Part shown: one piece after another, positions 5,014-61,561 of the stretch
How the letters are laid out: each line of letters opens with the position of its first letter
Position numbering within the stretch: position 1 is the stretch's first letter
Source of the DNA: Armatimonadota bacterium
Lineage (GTDB): Bacteria > Armatimonadota > SYMT01
Length of the DNA stretch: 64,000 nt
Assembly (NCBI GenBank): GCA_041690135.1
Contig: JAWLHY010000013.1
Coordinates: 202,306-266,305 of the forward strand
Direction: 5' to 3'
Position numbers and translations under genes: made by a program
Notes under the pieces: model-generated
Seen by the model: the letters and a program-made list of their open reading frames with translations, nothing else
Databases searched by the model: none
What the model was told of the DNA's origin: nothing

Positions 5014-5792
5014 AAGCCCTCACGATCGCGTGAAGAACAGTGTCTGGAACAGAGCGGTACTGAAGTTGCACATGTGACATGATACAGCCATCCTCCGCAG
5101 TGTGCTGGTGCTGGCGATGGATGGAAATGTCTTCCGTGTGGGCAGGAAATTTAACTGGATGATGCGCTAGTTGGTAAGATACGAAGCTATGAAACGATAT
5201 CCTCATTGATTACACCGCGGCAGGCGAATCCCTTGTCGCGGTGTGATAAGAACGGATCGCAACCCGGAGTGCGGTCGAGTTCCAGAGCGGATTGCCACCA
5301 CCCGCGAGAGATTCAAATACCCTTGTCAAAGAACTGATCGCGATCTCGGGCGGGTGCGGTTCGACCCGGACGAATCGGAGATCGACGCGCCACAGTCGCA
5401 GGTGCCGGTGGCGCCGGAGTGGATCCCGCAATGGCCGGGGGATCGGAGTCCCTGCGGGGGGCTAAATGTTCGGGAGTTGCTTTACCGGCCATGGTGTTCG
5501 CCCCAAGGGACGATCCGGATTCGGGACCAGTATTCGCAAGGGGACCGGACTTTGTCCGGACTCCCACCGCGCGCTGTAGGGTGGTAGCGAGTTGGGAGCG
5601 TGGTGTACGGAACGTCCGCTCCTCGCAGGATCCCCGTGGTACACCCGGCAACTGGGTTAACCTTGGCGCGAGGGCCAGGTGCAGGAGAGAGAGCAGCCGT
5701 GGCCGGCGGGTGTGCGGTTTGTCGATTGTGCGTACTGTGACGGACGGTGGCAAGCCCCTGTGCTACCTTTCGAACCCGAGGCGACTGCCGCC

Positions 5793-7226
5793 TCAGGCCT
5801 TCTGGAGAAGCTCGCGGATCGGTTTGCCATGGCCGTCGCGGGTGACGTAGAAGGGTCGCTTCTCGATCTCGTAGGCCAGCTTGGGGGAAATGCCGAGCGT
5901 GTGGTACATCGTGGCGTGAAGGTCCTCGATGATCACCGGCTTCTCGATCGTTTTGCAGGGGCGCTCGTCCGCCGTGACACCGTGGAGGTGGCCCTTCTTC
6001 ACGCCGCCGCCGAACATCAGCACGCAGCCCGCGTCGGTGAAGTGGCGGTGCATGCCGTAGTGCTTGCGCTCGGTAATCACGTCGGGGACCTCGACCTGGT
6101 TCTTGATCAGCTTGTCCGGCTTGCCTTCCATCATCATGTCGCGGCTGAACTCGCTGGCGAGCACGATCAGAGTGCGGTCGAGGAGGCCGCGCTCTTCCAG
6201 GTCGCGGACGAGCTGGGCGATGGGCGCATCGATCAGGCGCTTCATCTCCACCAGGCGGTCGTGGCCGTTGTCGTGGGTGTCCCAGCCGAAGAACGGCACG
6301 TATTCAGTGGTCACTTCGATGTAGCGGGCGCCGGCTTCCGTTAGGCGGCGGGCGAGCAGACAGCCGAGGCCGAACCGGCCGGTGTTATAGATGTCGTAGG
6401 ACTGCCGAGGCTCCAGCGCCAGGTCGAACGCCTTAGCGGCGGGAGAGCTGAGGAGCCGGTAGGCGTTGTCCAGGGAGCGCAGCAGCGACTCTTTCTGGTA
6501 GTCGCTGCCGTACTTATTGATCGGGCTGTTCTTTACCAGGCTCTTGTAGAACTTTTGCCGGCTCTCGAAGCGGGACGGGCTCATGCCGCGGGGTGGGCGG
6601 ACCGCCTCCACGGCCTGTTCCGGGTAGGGCACGTTGAACGGGCCATACTCGCTGCCCAGGAACCCCGCCGTTGTGAAGGCCTTGAGCTCCTCCCCCTCCC
6701 CCACGTCGAACCGCTGGCCGATGTTGATGAAGGCGGGCACGGCCGGGTTCTTGGGTCCGAGCGTCCGCGCGATCACCGCCCCGATGTGGGGACAGGCGAC
6801 CGTCTGCGGCGGCGCGTAGCCGGTGTGCCAGTAGAACTGGTGCCGCGAGTGGAGGATGAAGCCGAGGTCCGGGCCGGTGTACGTGCGGATCAGGGTGCCG
6901 CGATCCATCACGGCGGCGGTCTTCTCCAGGCCCTCGGAGAACCGGATCCCGTCCACGGCCGTGGGGATGGAGGGGAAGGTGCTGAGGACCTTCTCGGAAG
7001 GGGTGCCCGGCGCGAACGGTGTGTAGCGCTTGGGGTCGAAGGTCTCCGTGTGCGCCATGCCGCCCCCCATCCAGAGGACGATCACGGTGTCGGCGGTGGC
7101 GGGGGATGGGCGCTGGGCTTCAGGCTTTGGGCTTTGGGCCGCGTGGATCGCCTGGGGATAGCCGGCGGCGAGGGCGGAGAGGGTCGCGGCGCTCGCGCTT
7201 TTCAGGAAGTCTCTTCGATCGTTCAT
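5793..7226 (-). CDS. DUF1501 domain protein (Tat-exported)
   Basis: RRDFL Tat motif, LWMGGGMAHTETFDPK, GWDTH, SEFSR. Confidence 0.92.
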   Translation of the reverse strand: MNDRRDFLKSASAATLSALAAGYPQAIHAAQSPKPEAQRPSPATADTVIVLWMGGGMAHTETFDPKRYTPFAPGTPSEKVLSTFPSIPTAVDGIRFSEGLEKTAAVMDRGTLIRTYTGPDLGFILHSRHQFYWHTGYAPPQTVACPHIGAVIARTLGPKNPAVPAFINIGQRFDVGEGEELKAFTTAGFLGSEYGPFNVPYPEQAVEAVRPPRGMSPSRFESRQKFYKSLVKNSPINKYGSDYQKESLLRSLDNAYRLLSSPAAKAFDLALEPRQSYDIYNTGRFGLGCLLARRLTEAGARYIEVTTEYVPFFGWDTHDNGHDRLVEMKRLIDAPIAQLVRDLEERGLLDRTLIVLASEFSRDMMMEGKPDKLIKNQVEVPDVITERKHYGMHRHFTDAGCVLMFGGGVKKGHLHGVTADERPCKTIEKPVIIEDLHATMYHTLGISPKLAYEIEKRPFYVTRDGHGKPIRELLQKA

Positions 7227-7237
7227 ATCCGAATCCT

Positions 7238-9721
7238 TCAGTAGATCAACTGGAACTCGGGCAGCATCACCAGCGCCCAGAACAGGTCTTCCACACCTTC
7301 GCGGGTGGGCGGCGTGCCCAGGATCTCCTGCGCGGCACTCCGTTCCGCGGCAGAGGGCCGGCGTCCCAGGGCGCGCTCGTAGAGGGCCTCCGCCAGCGGG
7401 GCCTGCTTCTCGCTACCCGGCACCCGGCCGCTCACCCAGTCCTCCGCGCCCTGGGCCAGCATCGACGCGAGCACCTGGCCGTTGGTCAGCTCCAGGGCCT
7501 GCAGCGTGGTGGCGACTGGCGAGCGCCAGGTGACGATCTGTTCCCGGTTCGGCCGCCCCAGCGCGCGGGTCAGCGGGTCGGCCGTCGCCAGGGCGGCGCG
7601 GGCCTCGAGGAGCGGGCGGTCCGAGGTGACCACCAGCAACTGGAGGGAAGTCTGCGCCCCCGGCGTCTCGTGGGCGCCCGTGTCCGGACCGGCGGTCGCG
7701 CGGAAGCGGGTGGTCCCCGGCGGGAGCACGTAGGTGATGAAGGAATTGGCGTGGGTGCCGATCCCCGTCTTGAAGGTTCGGGTCCCCAGCCGCAGCGGCT
7801 TGTTGACCACGCTCCGGTTCAGGCGCACCTGGCCGTAGCCCGTGGTGGCCGACTGCCACTTGAGGGCCGTGAGGGAGGTCTCGCCTTTGGCGCCGACGAG
7901 GACCGGCTCCACCCAGTTGGCCCAGTCCGAGTTGCCGCCGTTGCCCCCGTCCAGGGTGATGAGCGTGAGAACCCGTGCCCCGGTGACGTCCACGTCCACT
8001 TCGACGGAGCCGCCCTTCAGCACCTCGCTCCGGAATTTCACCGCAGCCCGCCCCTCCGCCGCCAGGGCATCCAGGTCCGGCAGCTTCACCGGCGCGCCCG
8101 GCGCGGGAACGGACCACACCCCGGTGAGGGAGGAGATCGCGTCCACGAACTGTTCCGCGGACATCCGCTTGACGGTGGGCCCGCGGAATACAAAGGCGGC
8201 GGCATCTTCCGAGGCCAGCATCATCGGCGGAAGCTGGTAGGCGCGCGAGGTGACGATCCGTTCCAGGGTCTTCTTCAAATCGTAGCCGTTCTGCACCAGG
8301 TCGGCGGCCAGCCAGTCCAGCAACTCCGGCGACCAGGGCCGGTGGTCCATCTCGTCGACCGGCTCGACCAGGCCCCGCCCCATCAACCGCTGCCAGAGGC
8401 GGTTCACGAGGGTCCGGGGCAGGCGACCGTTATTGCGGGAAAGCAGGATGGAAGCAAGCTGCTCCGCTCGCTTTTCCCGTGGAGCGGCGGGGTCGATGGC
8501 GCCCAGTTCCGGATAGAGGAACTTGACCGGCGCTACCTGGCCCGTCGGCTTGTCGCAGCGGACCATCTCCAGCGGCTTATCCGCGTAGATCCCCGCCATC
8601 CCATAGGCATCGGCCAGCTTCCAGGTGTTGATGAAGCTGTCGTGGCAGGAAGCGCACTTGAGGTTGATCCCCATGAAGATCTGCGAGATGCTCTGCGCCG
8701 CCTGCATCTGGGGGGTCTGGCTGGCATTCACCACGCCGCGCCAGACGATGCCCTTCACGAACCCCGCCGAGGCGGGCGTCGGGTTCACCAGCTCCGACAC
8801 AAACCGGTCGTAAGGCTTGTTGGTCAGCAGCGCGTCGTAGAGCCAGCCGGTGATGGAGGCGCGGCCGCCGTCGATGTAGCCCGTCCCGATGTAGTCGTTG
8901 CGCAGGAGGTCGTTCCAGTACGAAAGCCAGTGCTCGGCGTAGCGGCGGTCGTCGGCCAGCAGCTTCCGGGCCAGGCGGGCGTGTTTGTCCGGTCCGCGGT
9001 CCGCTTCGAACTCCCGCAGTTCTGCCGGCGTGGGCAGGAGACCGATCAGGTCCAGGTAGACCCGCCGGGCGTAGGTCCGGTCGTCCACCACTTGCTGCGG
9101 CTGCACCTTGTGCGTGCGGAAATAGGAGGTCAGCAGCAGGTCGATCGGGTTCGAGAGCCCGGACCCGGGCGGGGCGGAGGGCACCCGCGGTGCGCCCAGC
9201 GCCAGCTTCGGCTTCCAGGTGTCCGCCGCCTTCGCGTTCCCGAAGCTGAGGCCCTGGTCGATCCAGGCGCGGAGCACCGCCACCTCGCGCGGCGCCAGGC
9301 GGGCTCCCTTGGGCGGCATGATCTTGCCCGGTACCTGGCCGGAAACGAGGCGGACCAGGTAACTCTGGGCGCCCTTGCCGGGCTGCACCACGGGGTGGGT
9401 GCTCTCGCTGCCGGTGAGGATCCCCTCCCGGCTGTCCACCTGGAAGCCGCCCAGACGCGTTCCGTTCCCGTGGCAGGCGTAGCACCGCGCCACCAGGATC
9501 GGCTTCACGTCCTTCTCATACGAGATGGGCGCCGGAGCGGTTTTCGCAGTCGGCCTGGGGGTTGTCTTTGGAGCGGCTTTGGCCGCCGCGGCGGGCTTCG
9601 CGGGAGCGGCCTTCCCCGCGCTAGACTTCACGGGCGCCGCCAGGGCGACCAGGGAAAGCGAGGAGAGCAGACCCAGCCCGGCCAGGCCCTGGAGGAGACG
9701 GTTGGAGGAGCGTATGCGCAT
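7238..9721 (-). CDS. PSCyt1-DUF1549-DUF1553 cytochrome protein with inserted NPCBM/NEW2 domain
   Basis: CYACHG, RRVYLDLIGLLPT, CASCHD, VNRLWQRLMGRG; NPCBM-like segments DWANW and GIGTHANS. Confidence 0.9.
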   Translation of the reverse strand: MRIRSSNRLLQGLAGLGLLSSLSLVALAAPVKSSAGKAAPAKPAAAAKAAPKTTPRPTAKTAPAPISYEKDVKPILVARCYACHGNGTRLGGFQVDSREGILTGSESTHPVVQPGKGAQSYLVRLVSGQVPGKIMPPKGARLAPREVAVLRAWIDQGLSFGNAKAADTWKPKLALGAPRVPSAPPGSGLSNPIDLLLTSYFRTHKVQPQQVVDDRTYARRVYLDLIGLLPTPAELREFEADRGPDKHARLARKLLADDRRYAEHWLSYWNDLLRNDYIGTGYIDGGRASITGWLYDALLTNKPYDRFVSELVNPTPASAGFVKGIVWRGVVNASQTPQMQAAQSISQIFMGINLKCASCHDSFINTWKLADAYGMAGIYADKPLEMVRCDKPTGQVAPVKFLYPELGAIDPAAPREKRAEQLASILLSRNNGRLPRTLVNRLWQRLMGRGLVEPVDEMDHRPWSPELLDWLAADLVQNGYDLKKTLERIVTSRAYQLPPMMLASEDAAAFVFRGPTVKRMSAEQFVDAISSLTGVWSVPAPGAPVKLPDLDALAAEGRAAVKFRSEVLKGGSVEVDVDVTGARVLTLITLDGGNGGNSDWANWVEPVLVGAKGETSLTALKWQSATTGYGQVRLNRSVVNKPLRLGTRTFKTGIGTHANSFITYVLPPGTTRFRATAGPDTGAHETPGAQTSLQLLVVTSDRPLLEARAALATADPLTRALGRPNREQIVTWRSPVATTLQALELTNGQVLASMLAQGAEDWVSGRVPGSEKQAPLAEALYERALGRRPSAAERSAAQEILGTPPTREGVEDLFWALVMLPEFQLIY

Positions 9722-11980: not shown

Positions 11981-12337
11981 ATGCGACGGATCGAATTCAC
12001 CCCCGACTGCGCCCTCCCAATCTCCCACTTTGAGAGCCACGGAGCCTCGAGCGTGCCACTCGGCGATGGCTCCGGCGAGACGCACATCTATTGCATCTAC
12101 CTGGAGTCGGGAAGCGCGATCGGTCTGCACCCGGCCGGTTTCGGGCAGCTCTTTCTGGTCGTGGCGGGAACGGCCTGGGCCGCGGGCGCCACGGGAGAGC
12201 GGATCCCCCTTCAAACCGGCCAGGGCGCCGTGTTCGAGAAGGGTGAGTTGCACTCCAAGGGCAGTGACAGCGGGGCGACGGTCCTGATGATCCAGGTCAG
12301 TAAATTGGATGCGCGTTGCTCCGTGGAGCAGGAGTGA
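11981..12337 (+). CDS. Cupin domain protein
   Basis: IGLHPA...QLFLVVAG...GQGAVFEKGELH cupin motifs. Confidence 0.85.
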   Translation: MRRIEFTPDCALPISHFESHGASSVPLGDGSGETHIYCIYLESGSAIGLHPAGFGQLFLVVAGTAWAAGATGERIPLQTGQGAVFEKGELHSKGSDSGATVLMIQVSKLDARCSVEQE

Positions 12338-12370: not shown

Positions 12371-12442
12371 GGGGACTGTAGCTCAAGGGAAGAGTGCCCC
12401 CCTCAAGCGGGAAGTTGGCGGTTCGAGTCCGTCCAGTCTCTG
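12371..12442 (+). ncRNA. tRNA-like element 1 (8-bp acceptor stem, anticodon arm 2 nt short, loop CTCAA)
   Basis: GGGGACTG TA GCTC AAGGGAA GAGT G CCCCC CTCAA GCGGG AAGTT GGCGG TTCGAGT CCGTC CAGTCTCT G. Confidence 0.7.
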
Positions 12443-12456
12443 CGCCTCCTACCTGT

Positions 12457-12530
12457 GGAGACTGTAGCTCAAGGGAAGAGCGCCCACTTGTCACGTGGGG
12501 GGTTGGCGGTTCGAGTCCGTCCGGTCTCCG
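12457..12530 (+). ncRNA. tRNA-like element 2 (Asp-like, anticodon GTC, 8-bp acceptor stem, no CCA)
   Basis: GGAGACTG TA GCTC AAGGGAA GAGC G CCCAC TTGTCAC GTGGG GGGTT GGCGG TTCGAGT CCGTC CGGTCTCC G. Confidence 0.8.
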
Positions 12531-12546
12531 TGCCTCCAGCCCATCC

Positions 12547-12620
12547 GGAGACCGTAGTTCAAGGGAAGAGCACCCACTTGCTAAGTGGGAGGCTGACGGT
12601 TCGAGTCCGTCCGGTCTCCA
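12547..12620 (+). ncRNA. tRNA-like element 3 (anticodon GCT with short variable loop, 8-bp acceptor stem)
   Basis: GGAGACCG TA GTTC AAGGGAA GAGC A CCCAC TTGCTAA GTGGG AGGCT GACGG TTCGAGT CCGTC CGGTCTCC A, followed by CCT. Confidence 0.8.
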
Positions 12621-12655
12621 CCTCCTTCCGGATCGAGTGACAAGGGTGGTGCAGT

Positions 12656-14143
12656 GTGGAACCCGTCGAAGGCTTCACTCCCGAAGAAAGGGATCTCTTT
12701 ATCCGCATCCTCCAGCGGATTTCGGAGGATCCTTCCGTCATCGCCGGCGACGAGCGGATGAAGGGGTTGATCGCGAAGATCCACCGCCGGGGCAGGAAGG
12801 GGGAGCGGTTGGCCAACCGCAGCCTGCAGCAACAGCAGGACGGTGAGCTTCGCCGGCACACCGCAACTGTCCGCCGTGACCTCGAGTCTCGCCCGCTCGC
12901 GGAAGCTGATGCCACCGCCGCAGCCCTGACCGTGGGCGCCCTCCACCGGCCGGCTTCCTGTTACATCTGCAAACAGCGCTACACGGAGCTCCACTTCTTC
13001 TACCATTCGCTCTGTCCCCCTTGCGCTTCGCGGAACTATGCACGTCGTACGCAGCGCGCCGACCTGTCCGGCCGGACGGTGCTCTTAACAGGCGGCCGGA
13101 TCAAGATCGGGTATCAACTGGCCCTGAAGCTCCTGCGGGACGGGGCGCGGGTCATCCTCACCACCCGCTTCCCGGCGGACGCCCTCCGGCGCCTGGCCTC
13201 CGAGGGTGACTTCACGGAGTGGCGGCACCGCGTGGAGATCGTGGGGCTGGACCTCCGCAACTTGCCGGCCGTGGAAGCTTTTGCGCACCGGCTGCTGGAG
13301 ACGGAGCCCCACCTGGATATCCTCATCAACAACGCTGCGCAAACGATCAAACGTCCCCTCGCCTTCTACCGGCACCTTCTGGATCGGGAAGAAAGCCCCG
13401 CACTGCTGGAAGCGCTGCCCGGCTACCCGGCCGAACCCTTCTCTCGTTTCAGCACCGCTCCGGTGCTCCCAGTGAACGGAGCGGAACACGGGGAGATGCA
13501 CTCCGGGCGTGAGACAGTGGAGATCACCCCAACACCGATGTTGCCGCCGCCCACCGCTAGGGGCGATGGTGCCTGCGTGAGCGGGCTTCTGCCGGACCAC
13601 CTCTTTTCCCCGCCCGGAGAATGCGATCCGGACGGCCAGCAGGTAGACCGCCGTCCCCAGAACAGTTGGGCTTTGCGCCAGCACGAGGTCACCACGCTGG
13701 AATTGCTCGAGGTGCATCTCGTCAACGCGGTCGCTCCGTTCATCCTCTGCCGGGAACTGCGTCCGCTGTTCCTGCGCTCTCCCTTCTCACGGCGGTTCAT
13801 CATCAACGTCTCCGCGATGGAAGGCCAGTTCGCGCGGCAGAGCAAGACGGAGCACCATCCGCACACCAACATGGCCAAGGCCGCGCTGAATATGCTGACC
13901 CGCACCGCCGCCGCGGACTTCGCCCGCGACGGGATCTCCATGAACAGCGTCGATACCGGCTGGATCACCGACGAAAAGCCCTTCGACCGCCGGAGGCAGC
14001 ACCAGGAGGAGGGGTTCTTCACTCCGCTCGACGCGGTGGACGGCGCCGCTCGTGTCTACGACCCCGTAGTCCGCGGGCTAACGGAGGCGGACGAGCCGCT
14101 GTGGGGCCAGTTCTTGAAGGACTACGCGCCCCACCCCTGGTAG
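12656..14143 (+). CDS. Atypical SDR-family oxidoreductase with N-terminal Zn ribbon
   Basis: CYICK...LCPPC; TGGRIKIG; NNAAQT; NVSAMEG; HPHTNMAK in place of YxxxK. Confidence 0.9.
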   Translation: MEPVEGFTPEERDLFIRILQRISEDPSVIAGDERMKGLIAKIHRRGRKGERLANRSLQQQQDGELRRHTATVRRDLESRPLAEADATAAALTVGALHRPASCYICKQRYTELHFFYHSLCPPCASRNYARRTQRADLSGRTVLLTGGRIKIGYQLALKLLRDGARVILTTRFPADALRRLASEGDFTEWRHRVEIVGLDLRNLPAVEAFAHRLLETEPHLDILINNAAQTIKRPLAFYRHLLDREESPALLEALPGYPAEPFSRFSTAPVLPVNGAEHGEMHSGRETVEITPTPMLPPPTARGDGACVSGLLPDHLFSPPGECDPDGQQVDRRPQNSWALRQHEVTTLELLEVHLVNAVAPFILCRELRPLFLRSPFSRRFIINVSAMEGQFARQSKTEHHPHTNMAKAALNMLTRTAAADFARDGISMNSVDTGWITDEKPFDRRRQHQEEGFFTPLDAVDGAARVYDPVVRGLTEADEPLWGQFLKDYAPHPW

Positions 14144-14191: not shown

Positions 14192-14246
14192 GTGGGGTGT
14201 GGAAGAGTGGGAGTGTGGGAGTGTGGAAGAGTGGGAGTGTGGAAGG
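14192..14246. repeat. 8-mer tandem repeat (GTGTGGAA/GAGTGGGA variants)
   Basis: Directly visible between the SDR and LRR genes. Confidence 0.75.
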
Positions 14247-14254
14247 GTAAAGGA

Positions 14255-15454
14255 ATGGAGAAGCAAGCTCCCGAGTCAGGCATGTCCGAGCGGTCAACGG
14301 AGATAGCGCCGATCCGCTGCCCCGTGGGCGATCCCTATGCCCTCGTTCCGTGTGATCCGGACGAGATCTCGCCCCTGCTTCAGCACCTTCTCAGCGATGC
14401 TGCGGTCGACGCTCCCGCGGTGTTTCCACGGGGGACCCTGCTTCCGGATGGGCGCCTCGACCTGTGCAAGCAGAGCCTTGGCCCCACCGGCTGTCGCATG
14501 GTAGTCCAGGGCGTCGCGCGGAGTGCCCGGGTGCGGAGCCTGCTGCTGGGAACCAACGCCATTGGGGACGCGGGCGTTGCCGACGTGGCGGACCTGATCT
14601 CCCGCAACCCCTCGGTGGAGATCCTCTACCTGGGCTGCAACCGGATCTCGGCAGCGGGTGCGGAGCGACTGGCCGAAGCCCTCTCCGGGAACACCACCGT
14701 CACCGGCCTGTGGCTGAAACGGAACCCACTCGGGCCCCCGGGTATGGCCGCACTGGCCGGCATGCTCCGGCGTAACCGTACCCTGCGCACCCTCGATCTG
14801 GTGAACACCCAGCCCGGAGCGGAAGGGTTGGCGGTCCTCCTCGACGCGCTGATCGAAGAGAACCGAACGGTGGAGCGCCTGTACCTCGGCGGCAACGGCG
14901 TCACGCCCGAAGTGGCGGAGCGCTTGAAGGAGCTCCTGCGCCGAAACCTGCGGGTTCGCGCTCTCCTGCTCAACGTCAACCCGTTGGGCGATGCCGGTGT
15001 CGAGGCCCTGGCGGAGGGTCTCCGGTCGAACCCTACCCTGGAGGAATTGGGGCTCGCCAGTTGCGGAGTTACTGGCGAGGGGGCGAGCCGGCTGTTCCAG
15101 GCGCTGGCGCGGCACCCGGCCCTGCGTATTCTCGACCTCGGCTACAGCCCTTCCACACGGGTACTCGGAGCCGTGGGCAATTCCCTGGGCGATTCCGGGG
15201 CGGAGGCGGCCTCAATGTTCCTGTCCGCCAATCCCCCACTCCGGCGGCTGAACTTGCAACGGAACGGTATCGGCGGGGAGGGCAGGCGGCGCCTGGCGGA
15301 AGCGCTCGGTGGCAACACCCACCTCGTGGAGCTGACCCTGGACGGCACCCCGGATCCGCGGATCACGGCACGGCTGGAGCAGAACCGCGCCCGAACGGGA
15401 GAGGTGCCGGTTTGTTCTCCCGATGTGGCGCTGATCCGGAGCGTCTACCGGTAG
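14255..15454 (+). CDS. Ribonuclease-inhibitor-like (about 28-aa) leucine-rich repeat protein
   Basis: Repeats LLLGTNAIGDAG, LYLGCNRISAAG, LWLKRNPLGPPG, LLLNVNPLGDAG and others; start taken at ATG 14255. Confidence 0.88.
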   Translation: MEKQAPESGMSERSTEIAPIRCPVGDPYALVPCDPDEISPLLQHLLSDAAVDAPAVFPRGTLLPDGRLDLCKQSLGPTGCRMVVQGVARSARVRSLLLGTNAIGDAGVADVADLISRNPSVEILYLGCNRISAAGAERLAEALSGNTTVTGLWLKRNPLGPPGMAALAGMLRRNRTLRTLDLVNTQPGAEGLAVLLDALIEENRTVERLYLGGNGVTPEVAERLKELLRRNLRVRALLLNVNPLGDAGVEALAEGLRSNPTLEELGLASCGVTGEGASRLFQALARHPALRILDLGYSPSTRVLGAVGNSLGDSGAEAASMFLSANPPLRRLNLQRNGIGGEGRRRLAEALGGNTHLVELTLDGTPDPRITARLEQNRARTGEVPVCSPDVALIRSVYR

Positions 15455-61401: not shown

Positions 61402-61450
61402 CATAGCCCCGAAGGGGCGGTGAGACAATAGCCGGGGGTGCAAACCCCCG
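61402..61450. repeat. REP-like hairpin pair
   Basis: GCCCCGAAGGGGC and CCGGGGG-TGCAAA-CCCCCGG between convergent genes; a similar CCCGCGGTTTTAACCGCGGG lies at about 52214-52233. Confidence 0.55.
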
Positions 61451-61561
61451 GACTCTGCACCCACACAGAAAAGCCCCGGCGCATGCGTCCGTATGGAAGG
61501 GGCGACAGAGGGATTCCCCCTTTGTGCCCTTCGTGTCTTCGTGGTTCAATCCCCACCCCGC

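Follow-up and report, generated by a model that had tools for sequence, protein, structure and literature searches.

The window analysed here, a 64,000-nucleotide stretch of contig JAWLHY010000013.1 from an Armatimonadota bacterium (about 65% GC), carries a tandem array of three tRNA-like units on its + strand (12371-12622), with the anticodons CAA, GTC and GCT, followed by two protein genes. ARAGORN run on the complete window returned exactly three tRNA genes, all on the + strand: Leu-caa (12371-12443), Asp-gtc (12457-12530) and Ser-gct (12547-12622). The first protein gene, located at 12656-14143 (+), starts 34 nt past unit 3 and encodes a 495-aa zinc-ribbon protein with a split short-chain dehydrogenase/reductase (SDR) signature, from now on referred to as SDR495. 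The next gene (14192-15454, +) encodes a leucine-rich repeat (LRR) protein of the ribonuclease-inhibitor type (RNI-type, LRR_6); its open reading frame (ORF) opens at 14192, and an alignment of homologues suggests that the true start lies near 14255 or 14282. No terminator-like site was found between the array, the SDR gene and the LRR gene. A weak sigma-70-like promoter match (GTGACA, 16 nt, GATGAT) is present at 12264-12291 (+), about 80 nt upstream of unit 1; one such site was found compared with a shuffle mean of 0.2, and it should be noted that the sigma-70 consensus may not be the promoter type of this organism.

The three units share a common body consisting of TA (U8-A9), a D arm of the form G(C/T)TC-AAGGGAA-GAG(C/T) with a 4-bp stem and a 7-nt loop, a 5-nt variable loop and a T arm reading GGCGG/GACGG-TTCGAGT-CCGTC. 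Outside the anticodon loop they are 82-91% identical to each other, and none of them (0/3) is followed by an encoded CCA. The combined D-arm and T-loop word pattern has three matches in the window and none in 100 shuffles. Scored with the Rfam tRNA model (RF00005, gathering score 29), units 1, 2 and 3 reach 44.2, 58.9 and 61.7 bits, respectively, and the covariance model of the family described below assigns them 72.5, 84.9 and 85 bits. In all three units a G directly precedes Rfam position 1, and its pairing partner at position 73 is a C in units 2 and 3 and a U in unit 1. In the RNAfold predictions, the acceptor helix of each unit has 8 bp and stacks on a T stem of 5 bp. For unit 2 (12457-12529, +; G-1:C73, anticodon loop TTGTCAC), the full 8/5 cloverleaf is the minimum free energy structure at -31.5 kcal/mol, and unit 3 (12547-12619, +; G-1:C73, anticodon loop TTGCTAA) has a folding z-score of -3.04 with none of 200 shuffles being as stable. 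Unit 1 (12371-12441, +; G-1:U73) does not form a regular anticodon arm in RNAfold (z-score +0.28); its arm, which includes the CTCAA region with the CAA triplet, is 2 nt short and allows at best a 3-bp stem with a 9-nt loop. The sequence-only reading of this DNA had described three tandem units with this body, these anticodon loops and no CCA, as well as an eight-pair acceptor helix on a five-pair T stem, all of which was borne out by the sequence, ARAGORN, Rfam and RNAfold. Its expectation of low tRNA scores was correct for unit 1 only, units 2 and 3 scoring as good tRNAs (59-62 bits).

Similar units are found next to SDR495 homologues in other genomes. A genome-contig collection was scanned with the D-arm and T-loop words, yielding ten loci, none of them from the source genome. 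Three of the ten (L003, L004 and L008) have the matched units adjoining an SDR495 homologue. In an Abditibacteriaceae metagenome-assembled genome (MAG; L003), units with the anticodons caa, gct, gtc and ggc precede an SDR gene (51% identity) and an LRR gene, and the same order is seen in a Nostocaceae MAG (L004) with tgc and gcg units and an SDR of 52% identity. In Chryseobacterium sp. JUb7 (L008), the SDR gene (37% identity) comes first and is followed by atc, gct, tcc and cac units as well as a fifth unit found by the covariance model. A protein search of a plasmid collection returned six SDR homologues, only two of which align over their full length, and both of these have tRNA-like genes within 60 nt of the SDR gene: a Deinococcus sp. 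KNUC1210 plasmid (L011) carries one unit (tgc) 58 nt upstream of the SDR gene and an LRR remnant downstream, and plasmid pFA2 of Fulvitalea axinellae (L012) carries three units (gcc, gtc and tca) just downstream. No tRNA was found within 4 kb of the other four plasmid homologues (Chondrinema, Tsukamurella and two Streptomyces). The array itself has no DNA match in the plasmid collection.

Including the window, tRNA-like units are therefore paired with the SDR gene in six loci, with record names from at least five phyla, the carriers being cyanobacteria, Bacteroidota, Deinococcota and Abditibacteriota in addition to the window genome; as three of the six loci were recruited by the RNA pattern itself, the two of six plasmid homologues represent the unbiased figure. 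Linked arrays hold between one and five units, and the LRR gene is also present in four of the six loci (window, L003, L004 and, as a remnant, L011). The units lie upstream of the SDR gene in four loci and downstream in two, both from Bacteroidota. The sequence-only reading had proposed to check whether such units recur upstream of SDR/LRR homologues with a conserved 8-bp stem and variable anticodons; the recurrence, the stem (16 of 18 units) and the variability were found, and the upstream placement did not hold for the two Bacteroidota loci. A pyrimidine-rich word, (G/A)CCTCC, which resembles the 3' end of 16S rRNA, occurs within 0-3 nt 3' of each window unit (12444-12449, 12532-12537 and 12620-12625, all +); the units of L003 and L004 are not followed by it. 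The genes flanking the module differ between loci: an NYN-domain (RNase-like) protein gene lies upstream in the Nostocaceae MAG (L004, 323-1837, +), SIR2 and TatD genes flank the module in Chryseobacterium (L008, 942-1769, -), with SIR2 following the array, and a DUF434/DUF5616 gene flanks it in Fulvitalea (L012, 5740-6495, +). None of these, nor a nucleoside hydrolase gene found beside one of the plasmid homologues, is common to the loci or shared with the window.

All 18 SDR-linked units were aligned to a covariance model built with an 8-bp acceptor stem. Fitting an alignment to a model favours the modelled structure; nonetheless, the slid controls and the compensatory changes are clear. Overall, 95.4% of cells pair. 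Column shuffles give 69%, none of 500 attaining the value of the real alignment, and sliding the pairing partners by one to three columns gives 42-51%. Changes on both sides are seen in 20 of 22 pairs. The -1:73 pair is present in 16 of the 18 units (GC 11, GU 3, AU 1, UG 1) and in 13 of 29 other tRNAs of the same loci, giving a Fisher p of 0.0025, which is generous because units within one genome are paralogues. Both units without the pair have Gly anticodons (tcc in L008 and gcc in L012). G1:C72 is found in 13 and A2:U71 in 14 of the 18 units, so that the acceptor end reads GGA...UCC, and the five pairs of the T stem are formed in 100% of cells. In the family alignment, U8, G18, G19, T54, T55, A58 and C61 are invariant or nearly so (nearly so in the case of G18 and G19), and the alignment positions T9, G11, G50-T53, A56, C59 and C60 are invariant. 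The units thus have a canonical cloverleaf complete with tertiary-contact nucleotides. They do not have a 7-bp acceptor stem with an unpaired discriminator base 73, the -1:73 pair being predicted for all three window units as for most of the family. The anticodon arm is irregular in three units (window unit 1 and L008 units 4 and 5), and four of the 18 lack U33: L003 unit 3 and L004 unit 1 have C33, and L004 unit 2 and L012 unit 1 have A33. Among tRNAs not linked to an SDR gene, those scoring highest with the family model are tRNAs for Thr, Phe and Ala, and nothing shows the body to derive from tRNA-Asp, as had been proposed earlier.

The anticodons themselves appear to be under selection. All three window triplets (caa, gtc and gct) are among the four of L003, which would happen by chance with a probability of about 1e-4 if triplets were random, and gct or gtc is also found in L008 and L012. 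Outside the anticodon loop the bodies cluster by genome, with window units being at most 77% identical to any other locus. As judged from these sequences, either the bodies were homogenised while the loops were protected or the same triplets were selected repeatedly, and either way the triplet would matter. The idea that anticodons had simply been swapped onto a shared body does not account for the return of the same set, CAA, GTC and GCT, in another phylum. The gtc and atc loops of the window, L003 and L008 have A37 and C38, the gtc loop of L012 has A38, and two of three gct loops (window and L008) have A37 and A38; we take these loops to resemble those of real isoacceptors. In L004, unit 1 combines a TGC (Ala) anticodon with G3:U70, and in the Ala unit of L003 (unit 4) positions 3 and 70 are mismatched (C-U).

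Bacterial Ser and Leu identity involves a large variable region together with G73 or A73, according to the bacterial identity sets given by Giege and Eriani (PMC9976931). In the GCT and CAA units, a variable loop of 5 nt stands in place of the class II large variable region, and because of this they cannot be ordinary tRNA-Ser or tRNA-Leu. Together with the encoded -1:73 pair, this upholds the proposal made from the sequence alone that the units are non-canonical. It also bears on another explanation of the array, namely that it consists of ordinary tRNA genes of the genome, or of cis-acting elements that signal processing or confer stability on the SDR-LRR mRNA, with an extra pair that has no special role. 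Units 2 and 3 do score as good tRNAs, and only 34 nt separate unit 3 from the SDR start codon. Co-transcription of tRNA genes with protein genes is well known, as in the tufB operon. However, besides the Ser and Leu anticodons on bodies lacking the large variable region (PMC9976931), this explanation is opposed by the excess of -1:73 pairs over other tRNAs of the same loci (16/18 versus 13/29), by the recurrence of the same anticodons across phyla and by the array travelling with the SDR gene between phyla. The change from an upstream position in four loci to a downstream one in two is a misfit with a single cis role. We consider it very improbable.

Units 2 and 3 bear the main His determinants, G-1:C73, without a His anticodon. 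The encoded G-1:C73 pair and the 8-bp acceptor helix are shared with bacterial tRNA-His, both in these two units and in 11 of the 18 family units; unlike tRNA-His, no array unit has a GUG anticodon, gtg being absent (0/17) from the readable anticodons of the family. Bacterial His identity consists of G-1, C73 and the anticodon, and the account of Giege and Eriani reports that moving G-1:C73 onto a minihelix suffices for His acceptance (PMC9976931). The units could accordingly be decoding tRNAs of hybrid identity, either charged by histidyl-tRNA synthetase (HisRS), thus placing His at Asp, Ser and Leu codons, or charged by synthetases that read the anticodon (such as AspRS), resulting in regulated mistranslation similar to that of tRNAProX, with the SDR and LRR genes being co-regulated passengers or modifiers. 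The transplantable His identity set, the intact tRNA core elements, the conservation of the triplets across phyla and the TGC anticodon joined to G3:U70 in L004 unit 1 all fit such a role. U33 is kept in 14 of 18 units, and tRNAProX, as described for that system, decodes despite A33 (PMC11415595). E. coli HisRS charged two G-1 species with GGU anticodons better than tRNA-His itself in vitro; yet the same species put no His at ACC codons in E. coli, as reported by Mukai et al. (PMC5389517). Hybrid decoding also has to contend with the aberrant anticodon arms of window unit 1 and L008 units 4 and 5, and it leaves the tight cross-phylum linkage to the SDR and LRR genes unexplained. A scan of 15 ORFs between 5793 and 21454 revealed neither a synthetase nor an elongation factor. 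The SDR and LRR genes show no clear enrichment of the codons that these units read (TTG 13.1 versus 7.3 per 1000, the others similar), for which reason a codon-supply role of the array was rejected as well. Overall, we regard hybrid decoding as unlikely.

The closest published relatives are the polycistrons of irregular G-1 tRNAs that Mukai et al. (Nucleic Acids Res 2017, PMC5389517) described from acidobacterial metatranscriptomes. Compared by description, both systems consist of non-canonical tRNAs in tandem that have G-1 encoded and an anticodon other than that of His, and GCU is among the published ones too; theirs include some 8/4 and some E-loop forms and have toxin-antitoxin neighbours (PMC5389517), whereas the units described here have a five-pair T stem and their conserved neighbours are SDR and LRR genes. 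An acceptor helix longer than 7 bp is also shared with bacterial selenocysteine tRNA (tRNA-Sec, 8/5) and with allo-tRNAs (8/4 and 9/3), whose anticodons are very diverse. Whereas tRNA-Sec has a long variable arm, an extended D stem and a UCA anticodon, the variable loop of the units is short and their D stem has 4 bp and closes a loop of 7 nt; UCA is absent from the window units and occurs in only one of the 18 units (L012). In that tca unit (5564-5650, +), the terminal pair is A-1:U73 and the flanks lengthen the acceptor helix to about 13 pairs; the SeC label given to it by ARAGORN is due to the anticodon only. In allo-tRNAs the acceptor branch has 12 bp, the T stem is shortened and the variable arm is long, in contrast to the five-pair T stem and short variable loop found here, and owing to this T stem the units are not 8/4 allo-tRNAs. 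The tRNAProX/ProRSx system, on the features described for it, likewise involves an accessory tRNA with mismatched identity and anticodon, sometimes without U33, that adjoins a dedicated protein gene (PMC11415595). Here, however, the dedicated proteins are an SDR-type oxidoreductase and an LRR protein, and no co-encoded synthetase was found among the ORFs scanned. A precedent for an SDR-fold protein taking part in tRNA handling is the TRMT10C-SDR5C1 subcomplex of human mitochondrial RNase P. The likeness shown is confined to the SDR fold. The module has no methyltransferase or nuclease partner. No paper describing tRNA-like arrays beside SDR and LRR genes turned up in full-text literature searches, and a term search of a 2024 review of mistranslating tRNAs gave no mention of G-1, HisRS or allo-tRNA in the text it covered. 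Arrayed non-canonical G-1 tRNAs are thus known; what these searches did not return is the 8/5-type family, its recurring anticodon set and the SDR/LRR neighbourhood.

SDR495 consists of an acidic/basic helical N-terminus (residues 9-77), a four-cysteine zinc ribbon (C102, C105, C120 and C123) and a divergent SDR domain. Its SDR motifs TGGRIKIG, NNAAQT, NVSAMEGQF and HPHTNMAK are, like the four cysteines, invariant in an alignment of 26 members that shows 59% mean column identity across phyla. The HPHTNMAK motif gives His401-x6-Lys408, and there is no catalytic Tyr at the Tyr-x3-Lys position; we take the His-x6-Lys spacing to be that of enoyl reductases such as FabI. Across 26 homologues, residues 33-80 have a net charge of about +8 and contain 27% K+R on average. 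An AlphaFold model (mean predicted local distance difference test score, pLDDT, of 79) shows a classical SDR fold, a β-hairpin zinc ribbon at 92-113 and a disordered insert at 261-312. A Foldseek search of the PDB with the whole model returned generic SDRs only, as did a PDB profile search, and the N-terminal 135 residues gave no Foldseek match at E<=0.001. All NCBIfam matches to the protein were far under the cut-offs. From its sequence, it is plausible that the basic helix and the zinc ribbon form an RNA-binding module. The possibility that the N-terminal helical domain is specific to tRNA-linked homologues was rejected upon finding a diverged version in L013 and L014, where the homologues have no tRNA-like genes.

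The SDR family is large, with at least 8000 matches, the best 120 of which, those listed, all have E<1e-150 and are named only as SDR family oxidoreductases. Named members among them come from Nostocales and other cyanobacteria, Roseiflexaceae, Armatimonadetes, Cytophagales and Gemmata, and the ESM Atlas clusters contain only 'SDR family oxidoreductase' and LRRC34-like LRR proteins. Among the matches listed, eukaryotic homologues are found in oomycetes, kinetoplastids, amoebozoans, chytrids, metamonads and a dinoflagellate; they too appear to be uncharacterised, being named only 'oxidoreductase-like protein'. Fusions listed for the family join the SDR to TrmO (one case), uracil phosphoribosyltransferase (three, in oomycetes), a cold-shock domain (one), an M20 peptidase (one) and a PhyH dioxygenase (one); the fusion and protist homologue proteins are P0429, P0426, P0432, P0434 and P0419. 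A second check confirmed all fusions except one of the three phosphoribosyltransferase cases, and because eukaryotic gene models can merge neighbouring genes, these fusions serve as leads only. TrmO is a tRNA t6A37 methyltransferase family. On the plasmids lacking nearby tRNAs, the Tsukamurella SDR gene is followed by a nucleoside hydrolase gene and the Chondrinema one is preceded by two DEAD-box helicase genes. Judged from sequence, the fusion and neighbour contexts lean towards RNA or nucleoside chemistry without naming a reaction.

The LRR family has the same taxonomic spread as the SDR family and 54% mean column identity. At least 14 of the 120 listed LRR members match a listed SDR member in the size of the longest contig, an indirect sign that the two genes share a contig, and 31 of 120 listed long homologues are LRR_6-SDR fusion proteins, two of which were confirmed with Pfam. 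These fusions are strong evidence that the two proteins act together. A candidate RNA-binding domain in LRR homologues, SpoU_sub_bind, was detected in four of 25 members and rejected as repeat noise, as the matches span only 25 residues, compared with 76 positions in the model, and include no significant stretch.

Patchy occurrence across phyla and presence on plasmids are features expected of a defence or conflict system, in which the units would act as decoys or bait, imitating the host tRNA-Asp, tRNA-Ser(GCU) and tRNA-Leu(CAA) loops for the anticodon nucleases of phages or competitors, the LRR protein would sense or inhibit, and the SDR would be the effector. RNI-type LRR proteins are inhibitors of RNases in animals. 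Homogenisation of the bodies within each genome while the anticodon loops are kept would suit decoys as well, as would the NYN RNase-like gene upstream of the module in L004, the SIR2 gene after the L008 array and the toxin-antitoxin genes near irregular tRNA polycistrons noted in the account of Mukai et al. (PMC5389517). On the other hand, PADLOC 2.0 defence models matched none of the four proteins tested, and no SDR homologue was found in 50,697 phage records. No flanking gene is common to the loci and the conserved core contains no nuclease; the degree of SDR and LRR conservation (59% and 54% mean column identity) is unusually high for defence genes, and the SDR family reaches many eukaryotes. 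A defence function is in our estimation decidedly unlikely, and the decoy, sensor or processing-signal idea of the sequence-only reading is kept as a rival explanation that we do not favour.

Any explanation has to account for the tRNA shape, the odd acceptor end, the selected triplets, the relaxed anticodon arms of some copies and the transfer across phyla together with the SDR and LRR genes. Our preferred reading, held tentatively and at somewhat short of an even chance, is that the array provides the SDR(-LRR) enzyme with tRNA-like partners of its own, outside the housekeeping set, which serve as its substrate, carrier or cofactor and carry the GGA/UCC eight-pair end. The units and the two genes would be transcribed together, given the 34-nt gap, the shared strand and the lack of a terminator match. 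The units fold into a normal L-shape, as shown by the tertiary-contact nucleotides and by all four helices, which are conserved with covariation. Since G-1 pairs with C73 as in bacterial tRNA-His, RNase P may cut one nucleotide early, followed by CCA addition, in line with established tRNA-His processing. The G-1:C73, G1:C72 and A2:U71 end would set the units apart from cellular tRNAs, and this end, together with the genetic linkage, calls for a reader that travels with the RNA; that reader could be the module's own protein, most plausibly its basic helix and zinc ribbon, and possibly also HisRS. The SDR, probably NADPH-linked and having the FabI-like His-x6-Lys in place of Tyr-x3-Lys, might carry out a redox step on a nucleoside of the RNA or on a group attached to its 3' end. 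The anticodon loop would act as a selected specificity tag, as the keeping of the same triplets across phyla suggests.

A stronger form of this proposal, which we consider rather unlikely, is a new tRNA-dependent enzyme system in which private, orthogonal, anticodon-addressed tRNA-like carriers with the eight-pair GGA/UCC end as their mark are charged or chemically transformed by a zinc-ribbon SDR on an LRR scaffold. By analogy, its logic would resemble that of the tRNA-dependent Sec, Asn, Gln and glutamate-1-semialdehyde pathways, with redox chemistry of a kind not yet known on tRNA.

Several points weigh against a dedicated partnership between the RNAs and the enzyme. Only six loci with DNA context are available, three of them recruited via the RNA pattern, and the paralogy of units within a genome means that the 18-unit counts overstate independence. 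No LRR gene was found in the L008 and L012 DNA examined. SDR homologues without nearby tRNA-like genes, as in four of the six plasmid loci and many eukaryotes, indicate that most of the family does without such RNAs and that the enzyme does not need them in general, and the diverged N-terminal domain of homologues lacking tRNA-like genes means that this domain is no specific marker of the linkage. In the structural comparisons, neither the modelled SDR nor its N-terminus matches a known RNA-binding or tRNA-modifying structure. Finally, the isoacceptor-like loops and the G3:U70 pair on an Ala-anticodon unit fit real decoding just as well. The probability left by the four readings belongs to functions that we have not considered.

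Accessory tRNAs with mismatched identity are rare, and tRNA-Sec, allo-tRNAs and tRNAProX each revealed new decoding rules. The units described here represent a recurring type that combines an encoded G-1, a normal 5-bp T stem and class II anticodons on class I bodies. If the RNAs are substrates or cofactors of the enzyme, a large protein family would receive its first function, and a new reaction would join the tRNA-dependent ones. Should they be His-accepting decoders instead, they would constitute a second natural system of programmed mistranslation.

Elsewhere in the window, domain matches identify a DUF1501 gene adjoining a PSCyt1/PSCyt2/PSD1/NPCBM gene at 5793-9721 (-), a pairing that we take to be typical of Planctomycetes and Verrucomicrobia; judged by these genes, the genome would resemble those of Planctomycetes, Verrucomicrobia or Lentisphaerae. 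An Rfam match to the Acido-Lenti-1 sRNA at 61405-61451 (-) scores 38.5 bits, barely over the gathering score of 37, and would suit a source of the Acidobacteria, Lentisphaerae or PVC type. The pattern scan also returned other tRNA-like elements. In three proteobacterial loci (L001, 1989-2135; L002, 1915-2058; L010, 972-1112), a full tRNA-like gene is accompanied by a second, truncated unit that matches Rfam only over model positions 4-67 and has a truncated acceptor stem; two of these second units begin with GGAT/AGGAT right before the D arm, and in L001 and L002 the pair adjoins an SPFH/Band-7 gene. These pairs may represent a different family of odd tRNA-like pairs. A tRNA-like element in the 16S-23S spacer of a Lentimicrobiaceae MAG (L005, 1989-2060, +) follows tRNA-Ile and tRNA-Ala, has G:C at -1:73 and scores 44 bits with the family model; it received no ARAGORN call and lies below the Rfam gathering score. 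A tRNA array unit, or L-array, is defined in the source consulted as comprising about 20 or more tRNA genes at high density (PMC4758250), in contrast to the three units of the window. A Sandaracinaceae MAG (L009, 280-3206, +) encodes 20 tRNA genes in 3 kb, including long-arm Leu and Tyr tRNAs. These genes form a classical tRNA array unit, which has no relation to the SDR module.

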